Source of the DNA: an uncultured delta proteobacterium | GTDB lineage: Bacteria; Desulfobacterota; Binatia; UTPRO1 | Direction of reading: 5' to 3' | DNA length: 64,000 nucleotides | NCBI GenBank assembly: GCA_963753325.1 | Contig: CAVWBS010000001.1 | Coordinates: 1,835,945 to 1,899,944 of the forward strand | Made by a program: the position numbers and the translations under genes | Shown here: piece by piece, positions 43,101-52,486 of the stretch | How positions within the stretch are numbered: position 1 is the first letter of the stretch | How the letters are laid out: every line of letters starts with the position of its first letter | The notes under the pieces: generated by a model | Told to the model about the DNA's origin: nothing | What the model saw: only the letters and a program-made list of their open reading frames with translations | Database searches by the model: none

Positions 43101-45852
<2,752 letters not shown>

Positions 45853-45994: not shown

Positions 45995-46879
45995 GTGACG
46001 CTGGACTCGCACCCGACCGCCGAGGCCTGCTTTCTCTGCGGCGGCACGCAAGCGCTGCGCTTCGCGCTCGGCGAGCGGCGGCTGCTCTACTGCCGACGCT
46101 GCGAGATCGGCCAGCTCGCGCCGCTGCCGAGCCCGGCCGAGCTCGCCGCGCTCTACGCCTCCGAGGCGTATTTCCGGGGCGACGACGAGGTCGGGTACGC
46201 CGACTATGCCGCGCGTGCGCCGCAACACGCCCGCTCGTTCCGCCGCCAGGCGCAGTGGCTCCTCCGGCACGGCGCGGTCGGCGAGCTGCTCGAGATCGGC
46301 TGCGGGCCGGGCCTCTTTCTCGAGGAGGCGGCGCGCCTCGGCGTCGCGCGACCCGTCGGCGTCGATCTCAATCCGTGGGCGGTGGCGGCGGCCCGGGCGC
46401 GCGGCCTCGACGTGCGACTGGGATCCGTCGACGCGATTGCCCCCACGCCCGGCTTCGACGCGGTCGCGATGCTCGACGTCCTCGAGCACGTCCCGGCGCC
46501 GCTGCCCTTCCTCGCGAGCGTTCGCCAGCGGCTGCGGCCGGGCGGACGCCTTCTCCTCATGACCCCGAACATCCGCTCGGCGCTGGCGCGCGTCTCGGGC
46601 CGGCGCTGGGTGTCCCTGAAGATCCCGGAGCACGTCCGCTACTACAGCCCGCGCGGGATCCGCGCCCTTTTGACGGCGGCGGCCTTCGAGGTGCTCGCCG
46701 TGCGGAGCGCGGGTCAGTATGTGACGGTGGCGTTCGCCCTCGAGCGTCTCCGCCGGCTCCTCCCGCCGGCGTGGCTCCTGCAGCGCGCGGCGCACGCCCT
46801 CGGCGCCGGGTCCCGCGTCATATTCTTGACCAATGGCTCCATCGACGTCGTGGCGCGGGTTGCGCCGGGCGCCGATTGA
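45995..46879 (+). CDS. Class I SAM-dependent methyltransferase with an N-terminal zinc-ribbon
   Basis: 294 aa with CFLCGG...CRRCE and the SAM motif LLEIGCGPGLF. Confidence 0.8.
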   Translation: MTLDSHPTAEACFLCGGTQALRFALGERRLLYCRRCEIGQLAPLPSPAELAALYASEAYFRGDDEVGYADYAARAPQHARSFRRQAQWLLRHGAVGELLEIGCGPGLFLEEAARLGVARPVGVDLNPWAVAAARARGLDVRLGSVDAIAPTPGFDAVAMLDVLEHVPAPLPFLASVRQRLRPGGRLLLMTPNIRSALARVSGRRWVSLKIPEHVRYYSPRGIRALLTAAAFEVLAVRSAGQYVTVAFALERLRRLLPPAWLLQRAAHALGAGSRVIFLTNGSIDVVARVAPGAD

Positions 46880-46969
46880 GATACTCCGTTGCATACGCAG
46901 AGGCCACTCGGTAGCTTTTATGGGTTGATAGGCAATGAAGTCTGCGACCGATCGGAAAGGAAGACACCA

Positions 46970-47680
46970 ATGCGGATAGGCAGGAGAGTACTGTGGACGG
47001 TGGCCGGCGCCTTCGCGCTCGCGCTGGCGACGCCTGCGGCCGGCCGCTGTGAGCATGCCTCGCTCACGCTGTACGGGGGCCTGTTCGGCAACAAGGAGTA
47101 CGTGGAGGGATGGGAGGGTGTCCAGGGCGCGATCGGCGTGCACGAGTACGTCTCGCTCCTGGCGCGCATCACCGGCGTGCACATCCTCGATTCCGATCGC
47201 TTCCACGAGGGCGACTCCGGTATCGGCGAGGGCGGCCTCGGCTTCCACGTCGCCCCGAACACGATGGTCGCCGTCCTCGGTGGCAGCTACTTCGGCGACA
47301 TCTTCGATCCGATCATCGAAGGCGACTTCAGCACCGCACAGCTCATCGGCGATCGGTGGATCTACCTGCAGGTCACCGGCGTCTACGGCTTCGACAGCAC
47401 CCGATGGCAGAACTCGATCTACCTCAGCACCCCGATCTCCGATCCGGCCAAGGACGTCGTCCTGTTCGGCGGCGTCGAGAGCTACCTCTACAACGAGGGC
47501 CAGCTTCGTCGTGACGGAGACTTCGTGCGCAATCCTGATCACGGTGACGTGAAGGTCCAGGTGGGGCCCGCCCTCAGCGTCTACAAACGCTCCTGGGACG
47601 CGGGCCTGAAGGTCGGAGTCGGCGGCGGGGACTACGGCGTGTACGGAACGATGTCGGTCTTCAAGACCTTCACCCTGTAG
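46970..47680 (+). CDS. Secreted protein, possible small outer-membrane beta-barrel
   Basis: Signal peptide MRIGRRVLWTVAGAFALALATPAAG. Gly/Tyr-rich alternating-hydrophobic strands occur throughout (VKVQVGPALSVY, AGLKVGVGGGDYGVYGTMSVFKTFTL), with an aromatic residue near the C-terminus. No family was recognised. Confidence 0.5.
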   Translation: MRIGRRVLWTVAGAFALALATPAAGRCEHASLTLYGGLFGNKEYVEGWEGVQGAIGVHEYVSLLARITGVHILDSDRFHEGDSGIGEGGLGFHVAPNTMVAVLGGSYFGDIFDPIIEGDFSTAQLIGDRWIYLQVTGVYGFDSTRWQNSIYLSTPISDPAKDVVLFGGVESYLYNEGQLRRDGDFVRNPDHGDVKVQVGPALSVYKRSWDAGLKVGVGGGDYGVYGTMSVFKTFTL

Positions 47681-47709
47681 CCGGCACACACCAGAACGAG
47701 GAGAATCGC

Positions 47710-48453
47710 ATGAAGACCGCAGCACGGATGGCAGTTCTCGGCGTGACGCTGGCCATGCTCAGCCTGCCCGCGACCGGCCACGCCTACGACCATAGCCGCT
47801 ATCGCTCGCAGAAGTTCGCCAACCTGCGCCGCCCGGTGTCCTCGACCGAGCAGTTCCTGCGCCTGCTCGACGCGCACAAGCTGAACGCGACGATCGACGA
47901 CTACGCCGAGGCGCTCTACCGGGGCGGCTGGATCGATCATCAGGATCCGCAGGAGGCGCGCCGCTTCCTCGGCACGCTGGTCGCCCGCCCGAGTCAGGAT
48001 ACGGAGGAGTACCGGACCTGGCGCATCCTGCGGGAACGCCACGGCCACGGCCACATCCTCGACAACGACTGGCACCGCCAGCTGCACGAGGGCGAGACGG
48101 GATTCTTCGACCCGCAGACGGGGCATCTGGTCGTCCTGTCCGACTGCGGCAATCCCGTCGAGGCACCGGCGAAGGTGCCTCCACCGCCACCACCCGCGAA
48201 GGAGGCGCCGCCTCCGCCGCCTGCGCCGGCGAACCCCTTCCCCGACAACGTCGGACGCGTGGTTCCATTCTTCAACGCCCCTGCGGCGCCACCGGCGCCA
48301 CCACCGCCACCGCCACCTCCGCCGCCGCCACCACCTCCGCCGCCGCCACCGCCTCCTCCTCCGCCACCGCCACCGCCTCCTCCACCGCCGCCACCGCCTC
48401 CGCCACCGCCACCGCCACCGCCGCCGCCGATGCGTCCCGGCATGATCGACTGA
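47710..48453 (+). CDS. Secreted protein with a C-terminal 44-residue polyproline tract
   Basis: SD GAGGAG lies before ATG 47710, followed by signal peptide MKTAARMAVLGVTLAMLSLPATGHA. A ~130-aa globular region is followed by Pro-rich blocks (PPPPPPAKEAPPPPPAP) and then 44 consecutive Pro codons and MRPGMID*. Two hairpins follow the stop. Confidence 0.75.
   Translation: MKTAARMAVLGVTLAMLSLPATGHAYDHSRYRSQKFANLRRPVSSTEQFLRLLDAHKLNATIDDYAEALYRGGWIDHQDPQEARRFLGTLVARPSQDTEEYRTWRILRERHGHGHILDNDWHRQLHEGETGFFDPQTGHLVVLSDCGNPVEAPAKVPPPPPPAKEAPPPPPAPANPFPDNVGRVVPFFNAPAAPPAPPPPPPPPPPPPPPPPPPPPPPPPPPPPPPPPPPPPPPPPPPPPMRPGMID
48298..48429 (+). repeat. 44 consecutive CCN codons (mixed CCA/CCG/CCT)
   Basis: Counted codon by codon in the frame of ATG 47710: 1+20+20+3 Pro codons with no interruption. 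Confidence 0.95.
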
Positions 48454-48495
48454 TCACACGACGGGGCCGTGGGAACCTCCCGCGGCCCCGTTTCC

Positions 48496-48532
48496 GGTCG
48501 TGACTCGGCAACCGAGTCGCGACCCGTTTTTT
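48496..48532 (+). terminator. Rho-independent terminator
   Basis: GGTCGTGACTCGG-caa-CCGAGTCGCGACC (13-bp stem with one G-U), followed by cgTTTTTT. A second hairpin, ACGGGGCCG/CGGCCCCGT, lies just upstream at 48461-48491. Confidence 0.7.
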
Positions 48533-48582
48533 CGTTACCGGTGGCTTCGCAAACGACGCCCCGGTAGGCTCGACGGTTTCCC

Positions 48583-49971
48583 ATGGGAGCCGCCGAACAT
48601 CGCCGCGACCACCCGGGCCGCGCCGAGCTGCGGGAGCTGATCCGCCTGGCGGCGCCGGTCGCCGCCGCCGAGCTCGGGTGGATGGCGATGTGGCTCGTCG
48701 ACATCATGCTCGTCGGACGGGTGAGCGCGGAGGCCATCGGCGCCGTCAGCGTCGGTGGCAACGTCTTCTTCACGGTCGCGATCTTCGGCATGGGCCTGCT
48801 GCTCGGCCTGGACTACGCCGTCGCCCATGCGGCCGGCGCGGGGCACCGCGACGCCGTGCACCGCACGCTCGTCGACGGCCTGCAGCTCGCCGTCGTCGCC
48901 ACGGTGGTCCTGACGGTCGTGGCGCTGGCGCTCCGGCCGCTTTTCGGATGGGCGGGTGTGCGCCCCGCCGTGGCCGCGCAGGCGGTTCCGTTCTACGAGG
49001 CGATGATCTGGAGCCTGTTCCCGCTGCTCGTCTTCTCGGCGCTGCGCCGCTATCTGCAGGCCCTCGGCCGGGTGCTGCCGGTGATGCTCGCCGTGCTGAC
49101 CGCCAACGTGGTCAACGCCGCGGCCGGGTGGATCTTCATCTTCGGGCATCTCGGCGCTCCGGCGCTCGGGGCGACGGGCGCCGGTTGGGCCACCATGGCG
49201 TCGCGATGCTACGAGGCGCTCGCGCTGGTCGCGTACGTCATCGTGGAGGAGCGGCACCACCCGACGGGTCTGTGGCGGGTCTCGCTGCGACCGCGATTGC
49301 CGCAGCTCGTGCGCCTGATCCGCCTGGGCGTTCCCGCGGCCACGCAGCTCACCCTGGAGGTGGGCGTCGTGGCGACCGCGACGACGTTGGCGGCGACGCT
49401 CGATGCCGCCGCCCTCGCCGCCCACCAGGTCGCCCTCGGCATCGTCTCCGTCAGCTTCATGATACCGCTCGGCGTCGCCTCGGCCGCCGCGGTACGCGTG
49501 GGCCGCGCGCTCGGCGAGCGCGACCTCGCGGCGGCGCGCCGCGCCGGCTGGACGGCGCTCGGCGTCGCGACGCTCGTCATGCTGGCCTCGGGCCTGACGT
49601 TCCTTGTCGCGCCGCGCCCGATCCTCCGCTTGTTCACGGACGACGCCACGGTGATCGCAACGGGCGTCGTCCTCCTGCGCGTCGCCGCCGCCTTCCAGCT
49701 CTTCGACGGCGTGCAGGTCGTCGCCACGGGCGTCCTGCGCGGCACCGGTGACACGCGGACCCCCATGCTCGCGAATCTCGCCGGGCACTGGCTCCTCGGG
49801 CTGCCCGTCGGCGCCCTCCTCTGCTTCCGCGCCGGGCTCGGGGTGATCGGCCTCTGGCTCGGCCTGAGCGTCGGCCTGATCGTGGTGGCGCTCACGCTCC
49901 TGCGGGTGTGGTCGCGCCGGCTCGTCACCGCGGCGGACCGCGGGCCGGCCGCGTCAGCCCTACCCGCCTGA
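48583..49971 (+). CDS. MATE family efflux transporter
   Basis: 462 aa with about 12 hydrophobic segments. The N-terminus ELIRLAAPVAAAELGWMAMWLVDIMLVGRVSAEAIGAVSVG is typical of MATE/NorM-like proteins. Confidence 0.85.
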   Translation: MGAAEHRRDHPGRAELRELIRLAAPVAAAELGWMAMWLVDIMLVGRVSAEAIGAVSVGGNVFFTVAIFGMGLLLGLDYAVAHAAGAGHRDAVHRTLVDGLQLAVVATVVLTVVALALRPLFGWAGVRPAVAAQAVPFYEAMIWSLFPLLVFSALRRYLQALGRVLPVMLAVLTANVVNAAAGWIFIFGHLGAPALGATGAGWATMASRCYEALALVAYVIVEERHHPTGLWRVSLRPRLPQLVRLIRLGVPAATQLTLEVGVVATATTLAATLDAAALAAHQVALGIVSVSFMIPLGVASAAAVRVGRALGERDLAAARRAGWTALGVATLVMLASGLTFLVAPRPILRLFTDDATVIATGVVLLRVAAAFQLFDGVQVVATGVLRGTGDTRTPMLANLAGHWLLGLPVGALLCFRAGLGVIGLWLGLSVGLIVVALTLLRVWSRRLVTAADRGPAASALPA

Positions 49972-51095: not shown

Positions 51096-51179
51096 GGAAG
51101 CACTGACCGCCTTGTCGCCTGGTTGACGTAACCTGGCCTTGTCGGACCTCCAACCGTCTCGCCGCTCCTCTTCAATCAC
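51096..51179. repeat. Direct repeat copy A (approximately 80 nt)
   Basis: GGAAGCACTGA..TCGCCTGGTTGACGTAACCTGGC..CCGACCTCCA.CCGTCTCGCC.GCTCCTCTTCAATCAC. It matches copy B at 55504-55580 with a handful of substitutions and an 8-nt insertion. Confidence 0.75.
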
Positions 51180-51258
51180 CGAGATTTCCAACCATCGCCC
51201 CTTTCGGACGAGTCGATTGCAGGATAGCAGGATGCGCGGCGCGATGGGCGAGGACTCC

Positions 51259-51705
51259 ATGAGAAGAGCGGGTGACCTGCCGCATACTGCGATCCGAGTA
51301 CTGCTGCTGCTCGCCATCCTCTTCGTGTCCGGCTGCACGATGATCGGACCGGACTACGCGAAGCCGATGCTGCCTCTCGCAGCGGGCTGGATCCCTCGGG
51401 ACGCCGCCGGCATCGCGCCTTCGACCGAGCCCATCGGTCCGTGGTGGGAGTCATTCGGCGACCCGGTCCTGACCAACCTCATCGTCGAAGCCTACCGGCG
51501 GAATCCTTCCCTGCAGGCGGCCGGCGTGCGCGTGCTCGAGGCGCAGGCGCGGCGCGGGATCGCGATCGGGACGCTCTTCCCCCAGATGCAGAATGCCGTC
51601 GGCGGCTATCGCCGCTCGGTCGCGAGCGAGAACGTCGTCGCGGTGCCTCCAGAACGGAGCTTCAACGAGTTCCTCGCGGGCTTCGACGTCGGCTGGGAGC
51701 TCGAC
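51259..51705 (+). pseudogene. N-terminal fragment of a NodT-family outer-membrane efflux lipoprotein
   Basis: Lipobox LFVSGC, then MIGPDYAKP...WWESFGDPVLTNLIVEAYRRNPSLQAAG...GFDVGWELD. The family-like sequence stops abruptly after about 150 aa. Confidence 0.65.
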
Positions 51706-52486
51706 AAGCGCGCTGCCCGGAATAGACCTGTACGCAAGGCGGATCGCGTTGCTCGACGAGGCGTCCCCCGAGCATCAGGCACTCGAAGGGGAATCGCTCC
51801 GACCACCGCATACGGCGGATGTCGGACCCTGAGCACGCGCATGAAGCGGTGTCGAGTTCCATGCTCACCGCTGCGGAGCCGTTCAAAGGTGCATCGCCGC
51901 ATCGTCGGCGAATCCTCCTACGCGTCCACCGGGGTACCCGGCTGAGTGACGAGGTCACCTGGGCGCTGAATCATCAGGACGCGCGGCCCCTCTGCGAGCC
52001 GGTCACCCTCATCCGCCCTCGCCCAGGGATCACGCCTCTGCGCGGCGATCAATACCCTGGGCGACGATCTCAAACGCGGGCGCCGCCCGATCGACGCGAC
52101 CTGCTCAGGGACACACCACTCGCTGCCGAGCAATCGCAACCGGCGCATCGGGAATCAGACGCAAGGTCTGGGCCGTCCCTCGACAAGCTGAATCATCGCG
52201 ACAATACAGCACGGTCTGGGTGAGCGTGCCGTCCGCGAGATCGAAGTCGAACGAGAGATCCGTCGTGAAGGTGCCGAGTTCGGCCCAGGATCGCGTGCGC
52301 CCGCAACACGAGCAGCGCGCCTGCGCCCGGTTCTCTTTCCGCCAGCCACTTTTCCTCTCCATCCGCCCCACCCCCTTGATGTGGGCCATAGCATGATCGG
52401 GGGCGATATATCGAGGGAGGTCCCTCGGCACAAACCATGACCGGTTCTCGCCGCCCTGGCACAATCGCGGCCTCTCGCTCACGACG

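Follow-up and report, generated by a model that had tools for sequence, protein, structure and literature searches.

A predicted outer-membrane beta-barrel and an exported polyproline partner form a conserved two-gene unit in Candidatus Binatia

We analyzed a two-gene unit located in a 64,000-nucleotide (nt) stretch of contig CAVWBS010000001.1 from an uncultured delta proteobacterium of the Binatia, a soil bacterium; this whole stretch is called the window below. Gene 1 encodes a predicted small outer-membrane (OM) beta-barrel, and gene 2 encodes an exported protein whose C-terminal half is rich in proline and carries a run of 44 consecutive prolines. Other loci and proteins used for comparison are given by their L and P labels. 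The genes and their expression signals are arranged as follows.

46889..46917, + strand: promoter-like element, TTGCAT-17 nt-TAGCTT (conserved block in the upstream alignment)
46954..46963, + strand: Shine-Dalgarno sequence of gene 1, GGAAAGGAAG (read from the sequence)
ATG 46970 to TAG 47680, + strand: gene 1, 236 amino acids (aa), signal peptide (about aa 1-26) and predicted 12-stranded OM beta-barrel (sequence, AlphaFold2 (AF2), Foldseek)
47698..47703, + strand: Shine-Dalgarno sequence of gene 2, GAGGAG, inside the 29-nt spacer (read from the sequence)
ATG 47710 to TGA 48453, + strand: gene 2, 247 aa (sequence)
48461..48491, + strand: terminator hairpin 1, 14-bp stem (folding)
48496..48532, + strand: terminator hairpin 2, 13-bp stem at 48496-48524, then T6 at 48527-48532 (folding)

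The two genes lie in different frames, and the 29-nt spacing, the separate Shine-Dalgarno sequences and the separate signal peptides were all found where an earlier note on this DNA had placed them. The GGAAAGGA within the Shine-Dalgarno sequence of gene 1 was kept in 9/9 aligned loci; in L012 and L015, the spacer is 32 nt long and contains GGAGA. Upstream, the promoter-like block begins 10 nt past the stop codon of a methyltransferase gene, 53-81 nt 5' of gene 1, and is conserved in the window, L004, L005, L010 and L001. A strict sigma-70 scan gave no match, with the TTGCAT/TAGCTT block below threshold, and we regard the block as a candidate promoter of the pair. Downstream, sequence and folding bore out the two hairpins described by the earlier note, the last with its T6 tract. 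They jointly fold at -58.7 kcal/mol (z = -6.5), a stability reached by 0/200 shuffles, and a homologue of hairpin 1, with T8 behind it, is present in both L005 and L010. A search of Rfam over 46500-48700 returned sub-threshold noise only. Taken together, the layout, the conserved upstream block and the terminator hairpins confirmed that this is a discrete bicistronic unit.

We then analyzed the product of gene 1. Its N-terminus (MRIGRRVLWTVAGAFALALATPAAG...) reads as a basic n-region followed by a hydrophobic h-region, which is kept in 24 homologues. The AF2 model, computed from a 24-sequence alignment, contained twelve long strands with high overall confidence (pLDDT 86.7, pTM 0.77). Foldseek comparison with the PDB gave 40 matches at E <= 1e-3, essentially all of which are OM barrels, most with probability 1.0. 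The lowest E-value was obtained for the COG4313 channel 4rl8 (E = 1e-5) and the highest TM-scores for FapF (TMq up to 0.62; PDB 5o65/5o68), the matches to these two lying at TMq 0.5-0.62. Other matches were the autotransporter beta-domains of EspP, Hbp and EstA, intimin (4e1s), PcoB, Tsx and a designed 12-stranded transmembrane barrel; among the matches, several hold a polypeptide in the pore, namely FapF, the EspP/Hbp/EstA beta-domains and intimin. In the model, the outward face consists mainly of V17, L12 and I6 and the inward face of G15, Y9, S8 and T6, with few charges in the lumen, and the loops are 2-7 residues long with one exception. The last strand alternates and has a hydrophobic end, and its final residue is aromatic in some copies only: among the C-termini of 24 aligned homologues, 8 read ...WKTFSF or a close variant, 4 read ...F/W-G-S, and 12, including the window copy (...GTMSVFKTFTL), end in Leu (...KTFTL). 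The earlier note had suggested a small OM barrel and had beforehand made its model depend on such a prediction; the AF2 confidence, the Foldseek matches and the face pattern all predict one, and we assign gene 1 to the 12-stranded OM beta-barrels with high confidence on the strength of the model.

The sequence of this barrel is unlike that of any catalogued family. A protein search with gene 1 retrieved 42 homologues (56-100% identity), none with a Pfam domain; they are unnamed or annotated as 'hypothetical', and the named sources are metagenome-assembled genomes of Candidatus Binatia or 'Deltaproteobacteria'. No match was found in Pfam (E <= 1), NCBIfam, PHROGs or PADLOC, in PDB sequence profiles at E <= 10, or with the hidden Markov models (HMMs) of autotransporter families. 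The barrel is thus new as a sequence family, although its structural kind is well known. In P0026, P0029, P0031 and P0033-P0035, the signal peptide is separated from the first strand of the barrel by a 20-30-aa low-complexity insert rich in Thr, Glu and Ser (alignment A1, columns 78-109), which is absent from the window copy. Lipoprotein status of the barrel was considered and rejected, as AGRC is not a lipobox.

The product of gene 2 is divided into the following parts.

47710..47784, + strand: signal peptide, aa 1-25, predicted cleavage between GHA and YD (sequence; AxA-type site conserved in the alignment)
47785..48168, + strand: head domain, aa 26-153, mostly helices plus a beta-hairpin (alignments, low-confidence AF2)
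48169..48231, + strand: first Pro-rich linker, aa 154-174, sequence and length variable among lineages (alignment)
48232..48273, + strand: aromatic/Arg motif NPFPDNVGRVVPFF, aa 175-188, 14 residues (alignment)
48298..48429, + strand: polyproline rod, 44 consecutive Pro, aa 197-240 (sequence; about 136 A as a polyproline II (PPII) helix)
48430..48453, + strand: tail MRPGMID and stop codon (sequence)

This division agrees with the head, Pro-rich blocks and 44-Pro rod recognized in the earlier note, with a head of about 125 aa. Across an alignment of 12 copies, the N-terminus shows a basic n-region, a hydrophobic h-region and an AxA cleavage site followed by (Y/F)D, and the charged head ends in an invariant D-C-[GA]-N-P-V. 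The Pro-rich linker that follows is 20-31 aa long among lineages and leads to the aromatic/Arg motif, with the consensus NPFPxxxGRxVPF[FY], which is present in 9/9 complete lineages; judging from its sequence and position, the motif is a candidate docking or trans-lumen segment. Gene 2 matched nothing in Pfam, NCBIfam, PHROGs or PADLOC, and the head gave chance-level matches only against PDB sequence profiles. Foldseek with the gene 2 model returned nothing below E = 4, as expected at a head pLDDT of 45-60. The protein contains no lipobox, with the signal peptide ending at GHA before YD and no Cys at +1, and is not of the PEP-CTERM type, since the tails (MRPGMID, NPGTC, RRLPFD and similar) have no hydrophobic helix. 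The partner protein and its head family are undescribed.

The Cys of the D-C-[GA]-N-P-V element (Cys146, nt 48145-48147) lies at the border between head and linker, is invariant, and is the sole Cys of the mature window protein; it also occurs in the distant relatives P0048-P0050 described below, and no conserved partner Cys was found in the barrel. A disulfide between Cys27 of the barrel and Cys146 of the partner was rejected as a general mechanism, since about half of the barrel homologues have no Cys27. A stretch resembling the Pin1 WW domain (E = 1.6) was likewise rejected as a polyproline-binding module; of the two Trp, the first is not conserved and the second is missing, and the AF2 model has a helix at this site.

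Next, the polyproline rod was compared among lineages. Its length in the nine lineages with a complete 3' end was 44, 48, 51, 44, 41, 48, 50, 49 and 40 residues (mean 46.1, standard deviation 3.8, range 40-51). With the rise of 3.1 A per residue of a PPII helix, this range corresponds to 124-158 A, and the AF2 model shows the run extended (pLDDT about 88). The expectation that the tract is freely variable in length was therefore not borne out; 40-51 residues were found in nine lineages, with one possible 10-Pro exception discussed below. No other Pro run longer than 6 occurs in any frame of the window. Of 415 tract positions in the nine lineages, 412 are Pro and three are not, third codon positions vary, and the tract DNA is an imperfect repeat with 74-78% matches. 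Codon use for Pro differs strongly between the tract and the rest of the pair (chi-square p = 2e-29), as listed here.

CCA: tract 32%, barrel plus head 8%
CCG: tract 51%, barrel plus head 56%
CCT: tract 16%, barrel plus head 3%
CCC: tract 1.5%, barrel plus head 32%

CCC and CCU are reported to be slow and frameshift-prone in polyproline contexts, where CCG and CCA are favoured (review, PMC12856214); in low-complexity regions of bacteria as a whole, CCG is the predominant codon, an observation interpreted as slippage (PMC6821194). The codon use of the tract fits CCC avoidance. With this bias and the variable third positions, the tract looks like a protein-level feature that is kept both translatable and genetically stable, and not like a microsatellite: the tract is under codon-level selection. 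Slippage at a contingency locus was rejected on the degenerate DNA repeat and the similar length across lineages.

Past the rod, the tails are 3-8 residues long and non-conserved, and the conserved motif stands at the near end of the rod instead. Those of the window (MRPGMID), L005 (MHPGILD) and L010 (HPGVLE) are alike, indicating that the reading frame is kept through the tract. The FtsH stretch of the window (43197-45124, - strand) contains at least 7 frame changes, lying in at least 7 pieces and three frames compared with the L001 orthologue, and is either an indel-rich piece of assembly or a decayed gene. The exact count of 44 Pro could therefore be off by whole codons, although frame and tail agree with L005 and L010 despite these frame changes. 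In L009 (6624-8576), no stop follows the Pro tract and the open reading frame (ORF) continues for 650 aa into a LolA/TP_0789-like gene, probably owing to an indel in the tract. On the - strand of the window, the long poly-Gly run of a 265-aa ORF (47994-48791) mirrors the Pro tract as its reverse complement; this ORF is an artefact that a gene caller could choose wrongly.

The partner family is barely visible in protein databases. The short contigs L003, L004, L013 and L014 break off within the tract, and L024 is clearly a chimera joined there. The exact product of gene 2 was absent from a collection of 15 billion proteins in which gene 1, from the same 2.9-Mb contig, was present. The contig breaks at the tract and the missing product together suggest that the partner family is systematically under-sampled. 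Triple proline makes up 91% of the polyproline motifs of E. coli (PMC4218817), and the longest proline run of B. subtilis is four residues (PMC12856214). Uninterrupted runs of 40-51 Pro are far beyond those described for bacteria.

The co-occurrence of the two genes was then analyzed. A head and polyproline partner was present in every related locus examined: it recurs in all 13 distinct Binatia loci with enough downstream sequence (the pair is found in the window, L001/L006, L002/L008, L003-L005, L007, L009, L010, L012-L015, L022-L024 and the P0031 locus), and 7/7 species representatives of GTDB that encode the barrel encode the partner immediately 3'. The earlier note had beforehand made conserved pairing decisive for its proposal, and strict pairing is what we observed. 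The partner starts 14-32 nt past the barrel gene across loci, while barrel identity among the paired loci goes down to 54%. Two kinds of neighbourhood were seen. In the first, genes for FtsH, a nitroreductase and a methyltransferase lie upstream and MatE or other genes downstream; in the second, MetH lies upstream and a TP_0789/LolA-like gene downstream. With at least two kinds of neighbourhood, the two genes move together as one unit, which no third gene accompanies across the compared neighbourhoods. Farther downstream in the window, the start (...LFVSGCTMIGPDYAKP) of an ORF at 51139-51945 (+ strand) is one that we take to be like a NodT-type outer-membrane efflux lipoprotein; this ORF breaks off early, had no Pfam match at 1e-3, and may be truncated or frameshifted.

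Relatives of the head were also found beyond the Binatia pair. An exhaustive HMMER search with the head in 1.84 billion representative proteins gave nine matches, a word-indexed protein search gave 4-5 proteins even with a diverse profile, and a metagenome scan with a narrower head alignment gave one short locus. P0048 and P0049 have homologous heads (E = 5.6e-15 and 1.5e-8). In these two proteins and in L011, a Pro-rich tail shorter than that of gene 2 follows the head and carries an aromatic motif, with an element, [FY]..LP.PPP, related to the motif of gene 2. The head gene lies 20-30 nt upstream of a gene for a 410-416-aa OM barrel (L017 75-2029, L018 6001-8084, L019 89-2172, L011 264-1299), which is of the BBP2_2/EpsL/TIGR03016 type according to sub-threshold NCBIfam matches. 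The barrel is followed by a short Poly_export protein of 195-199 aa, Wzz/GNVR and a tyrosine kinase, and the locus that it opens further encodes a deacetylase, an acetyltransferase and Wzy_C. Like the window pair, this exopolysaccharide version thus combines a homologous head and a Pro-rich tail bearing an aromatic motif with a closely spaced OM barrel gene. In contrast, its head gene comes first, the barrel is larger and unrelated, the tails are short without a long Pro run, and Poly_export, Wzz/GNVR, tyrosine kinase and Wzy_C are all absent around the window pair. The EpsL/BBP2_2 (PF10082) barrels are not detectably related to gene 1; Pfam gave nothing, and hhalign of alignment A1 against A8 gave a probability of 0.2.

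By gene content, the exopolysaccharide loci belong to the composite short-OPX/beta-barrel translocons known from Myxococcus (PMC9601211, PMC9603273, PMC12819527). Searched by term, PMC9601211 and PMC12819527 gave no 'proline', and PMC12819527 gave neither 'accessory' nor 'unknown function'. In these loci, the head relatives may represent a part of composite OPX/beta-barrel translocons that has gone unrecognised. The head family is thus encoded beside two unrelated barrel families in both gene orders, marking it as an envelope or surface family repeatedly encoded beside an OM barrel, and this recurrent adjacency is the strongest indirect argument for physical cooperation of barrel and partner. 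In a further branch (P0050/P0051), a membrane segment precedes the head, which continues through a Pro/Ala linker into an additional beta-rich domain containing two Cys; these genes lie between a sortase gene and a gene for a 1300-1400-aa CLIPPER/DUF11 surface protein (L016 4036-10593, L020 5103-11006). The C-terminal domain of this branch was rejected as a fused barrel, as it is about 150 aa long, charged, has two Cys and resembles a soluble beta domain. P0047, on a 1.26-kb ENA contig, joins a DUF6918 N-terminus to a head-domain fragment and is probably from a chimeric contig.

As the reading that best accommodates these data, we propose, with a probability of roughly 0.35, that the two proteins make an interlocked OM complex in which the barrel holds, and probably threads, the Pro-rich half of its partner as a rigid outward projection. 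Gene 1 would be a BAM-type barrel with very short loops and a lumen lined with Gly, Tyr, Ser and Thr. Gene 2 would be exported by Sec and its signal peptide cleaved. The folded head of about 125 aa is too large for a 12-stranded barrel and would therefore stay in the periplasm, whereas the extended Pro-rich chain could pass such a barrel, so that the C-terminal half may be captured by it. The 14-residue NPFPxxxGRxVPFF segment, which is long enough to span the barrel when extended, would lie in the lumen or at its periplasmic mouth, and the free-ended run of 40-51 Pro would project outward as a rigid PPII rod of about 12-16 nm. The result would be a bristle or spacer with its length set by the number of Pro codons. 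What favours such a complex is the combination of an excluded folded head, a conserved motif only at the near end of the rod and a featureless far end.

Several observations weigh against this proposal. The head model is poor (six helices and a hairpin at AF2 pLDDT 45-60, from an alignment of five sequences). Lumen-facing positions of the barrel are not significantly more conserved than lipid-facing ones (entropy 0.72 vs 0.82, p = 0.31), so that conservation itself offers no argument for a ligand in the lumen. Similarly strong Foldseek matches were obtained for the small-solute channels COG4313, Tsx and PcoB, indicating that the fold does not single out polypeptide-conducting barrels. Finally, L022 and L023, two assemblies of one lineage, have 10 Pro after the NPFP...VPFY motif. 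In both (L022 4797-5438, L023 1239-1880), the tail is APERGL, followed by its own stop codon and by its own hairpin with T5; the heads are 91% identical to that of the window, and the nearest relative, L004, has at least 26 Pro at its contig end. This form is either a real short allele or a collapsed tract. If it is real, the long rod is dispensable.

Known systems provide partial parallels for a threaded complex. Autotransporters (type Va EspP, Hbp and EstA; type Ve intimin/invasin) have a 12-stranded OM barrel, matched here by Foldseek, with a polypeptide segment in the pore, and in type Ve proteins, a periplasmic domain at the N-terminus is joined to a C-terminal part that projects from the surface, an order matched by head, linker and rod here. 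However, barrel and passenger are one polypeptide there and two ORFs 29 nt apart here, and autotransporter passengers consist of Ig-like domains or a beta-helix, whereas the putative passenger here would be a bare polyproline rod. In RcsF-OMP complexes, a separate protein is threaded through the lumen of an outer-membrane protein (OMP) (PMC4942254). Our proposal resembles this arrangement, in which a disordered segment passes the barrel lumen with one end on the surface while the folded domain is periplasmic. Nevertheless, RcsF is a lipoprotein that uses the general porins (OmpA/C/F) and is not encoded beside them; the present pair has no lipobox, a dedicated co-transcribed barrel and a long rigid rod. 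For the combination of a small barrel with a conserved 40-51-Pro rod, no counterpart was found in family libraries, solved structures or the searchable literature, and the statement of the earlier note that no system of this composition has been described still stands after Pfam, NCBIfam, PHROGs, PADLOC, PDB profiles and the literature were searched.

A bolder form of the threaded complex, which we put forward tentatively, is that the pair is a hitherto unrecognised type of bacterial envelope appendage, in which a dedicated minimal 12-stranded barrel is permanently threaded by a polyproline rod of about 14 nm that serves as a genetically encoded molecular ruler or bristle at the cell surface, and that the head marks a wider, unnoticed family of barrel-plugging accessory proteins. 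As part of this joint claim, that family would extend to the barrels of composite OPX/beta-barrel polysaccharide translocons.

The strongest competitor, although unlikely, is a periplasmic strut, in which the barrel would be only an OM anchor, the partner would dock on the periplasmic side of this anchor by its NPFP...VPFF motif or by its head, and the rod would point inward and set the envelope spacing. Such a strut would be comparable, in steric terms, to Lpp or to the Pro-rich spacers of TonB and OmpA. The pairing and the rod-length data speak for it as much as for the threaded complex, and a rod of 124-158 A is on the order of periplasmic distances. No binding module would be required at the far end, in agreement with the non-conserved tail. 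Both ends of a 12-stranded barrel are periplasmic, and some homologues carry the Thr/Glu/Ser-rich N-terminal extension there. However, the periplasmic turns, of 2-7 residues and not especially conserved, offer little docking surface, neither protein matches a peptidoglycan-binding or inner-membrane anchor domain in Pfam or NCBIfam, and the possible 10-Pro allele would abolish a spacer function. The spacer analogy drawn in the earlier note holds in part only. TonB and OmpA hinge spacers are, like the rod, extended stiff PPII-type segments bridging defined distances, and this physical likeness stands. TonB, however, is anchored in the inner membrane, mixes Glu-Pro with Lys-Pro repeats and ends in a TonB_C domain, features none of which was found in gene 2 with Pfam and NCBIfam, and OmpA has the peptidoglycan-binding OmpA_C domain, which these libraries matched in neither protein. 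Here, a cleavable AxA signal peptide and a pure run of 40-51 Pro with a free end are found instead, with no conserved module at the far end of the rod.

It is distinctly unlikely that the two are co-transcribed but independent neighbours, with gene 1 a small-solute channel like COG4313, Tsx or PcoB and gene 2 an unrelated periplasmic protein with a low-complexity Pro tail. The best Foldseek E-value, to the COG4313 channel 4rl8, the matches to Tsx and PcoB and the unremarkable conservation of the lumen are in keeping with such a view. Nevertheless, it does not sit well with 100% co-occurrence in more than 12 loci at barrel identities down to 54%, in two neighbourhoods and at a short, fixed spacing. 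No barrel homologue lacking a partner was found, and the head family also neighbours a second, different family of OM barrels, there with the gene order reversed.

Less probable still is a secretion pair like FapF-FapC or CsgG-CsgA, in which the barrel would export the whole unfolded partner to the surface or matrix and the polyproline tail would be a structural or adhesive element, for example one binding polyphenols or aromatic-rich surfaces. FapF gave the top TM-scores (to 0.62) and, like the COG4313 channel, is a 12-stranded barrel; its substrate is encoded in the same operon, as the partner is here. Relatives of the head also occur in exopolysaccharide (matrix) loci and in loci for sortase and CLIPPER/DUF11 surface proteins. 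Gene 1, however, shares 7-9% sequence identity with FapF and COG4313, with no HMM match, and its 236-aa product has neither the N-terminal coiled-coil nor the plug of FapF. The head looks folded and helical in the low-confidence AF2 model, unlike an amyloid or disordered substrate, and no further secretion components are conserved nearby. Instead of fap genes or an aromatic-degradation context, the window pair has FtsH, nitroreductase, methyltransferase and MatE as neighbours.

We consider it very unlikely that the 44-Pro run is a translational device, that is, an EF-P-dependent throttle or a sensor of EF-P or proline status in which the mechanics of the rod would be irrelevant. Consecutive prolines stall ribosomes, even 20-Pro constructs are hard to translate (PMC12856214), and the codon choice of the tract looks tuned for translation. 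However, strong terminators lie directly 3' and the downstream genes depend on lineage, leaving nothing downstream to regulate; a few prolines suffice for stalling, so that a length of 40-51 would go unexplained, as would the export signal and the pairing with a barrel. Hardly credible is an artefact, whether a GC-rich non-coding repeat or a misassembly that became attached to a genuine but shorter gene. This assembly does have many FtsH frame changes, and short-read contigs break or turn chimeric at the tract. However, in eight independent assemblies, both long-read and short-read, the frame runs uninterrupted across the tract and ends 3-8 codons past it; homologous tails follow the tract in the window, L005 and L010, and its codons keep CC at positions 1-2 with a variable third position.

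The interlocked complex is our preferred reading. The pair probably forms a new kind of cell-envelope fixture. If the barrel holds or threads the rod, it would offer a simple two-gene system for studying the insertion of separate polypeptides into barrels, a natural nanoscale spacer of fixed length, and an extreme natural substrate of EF-P. In addition, the link between the head and EpsL barrels suggests that a component of a widespread machine for polysaccharide export has been overlooked.

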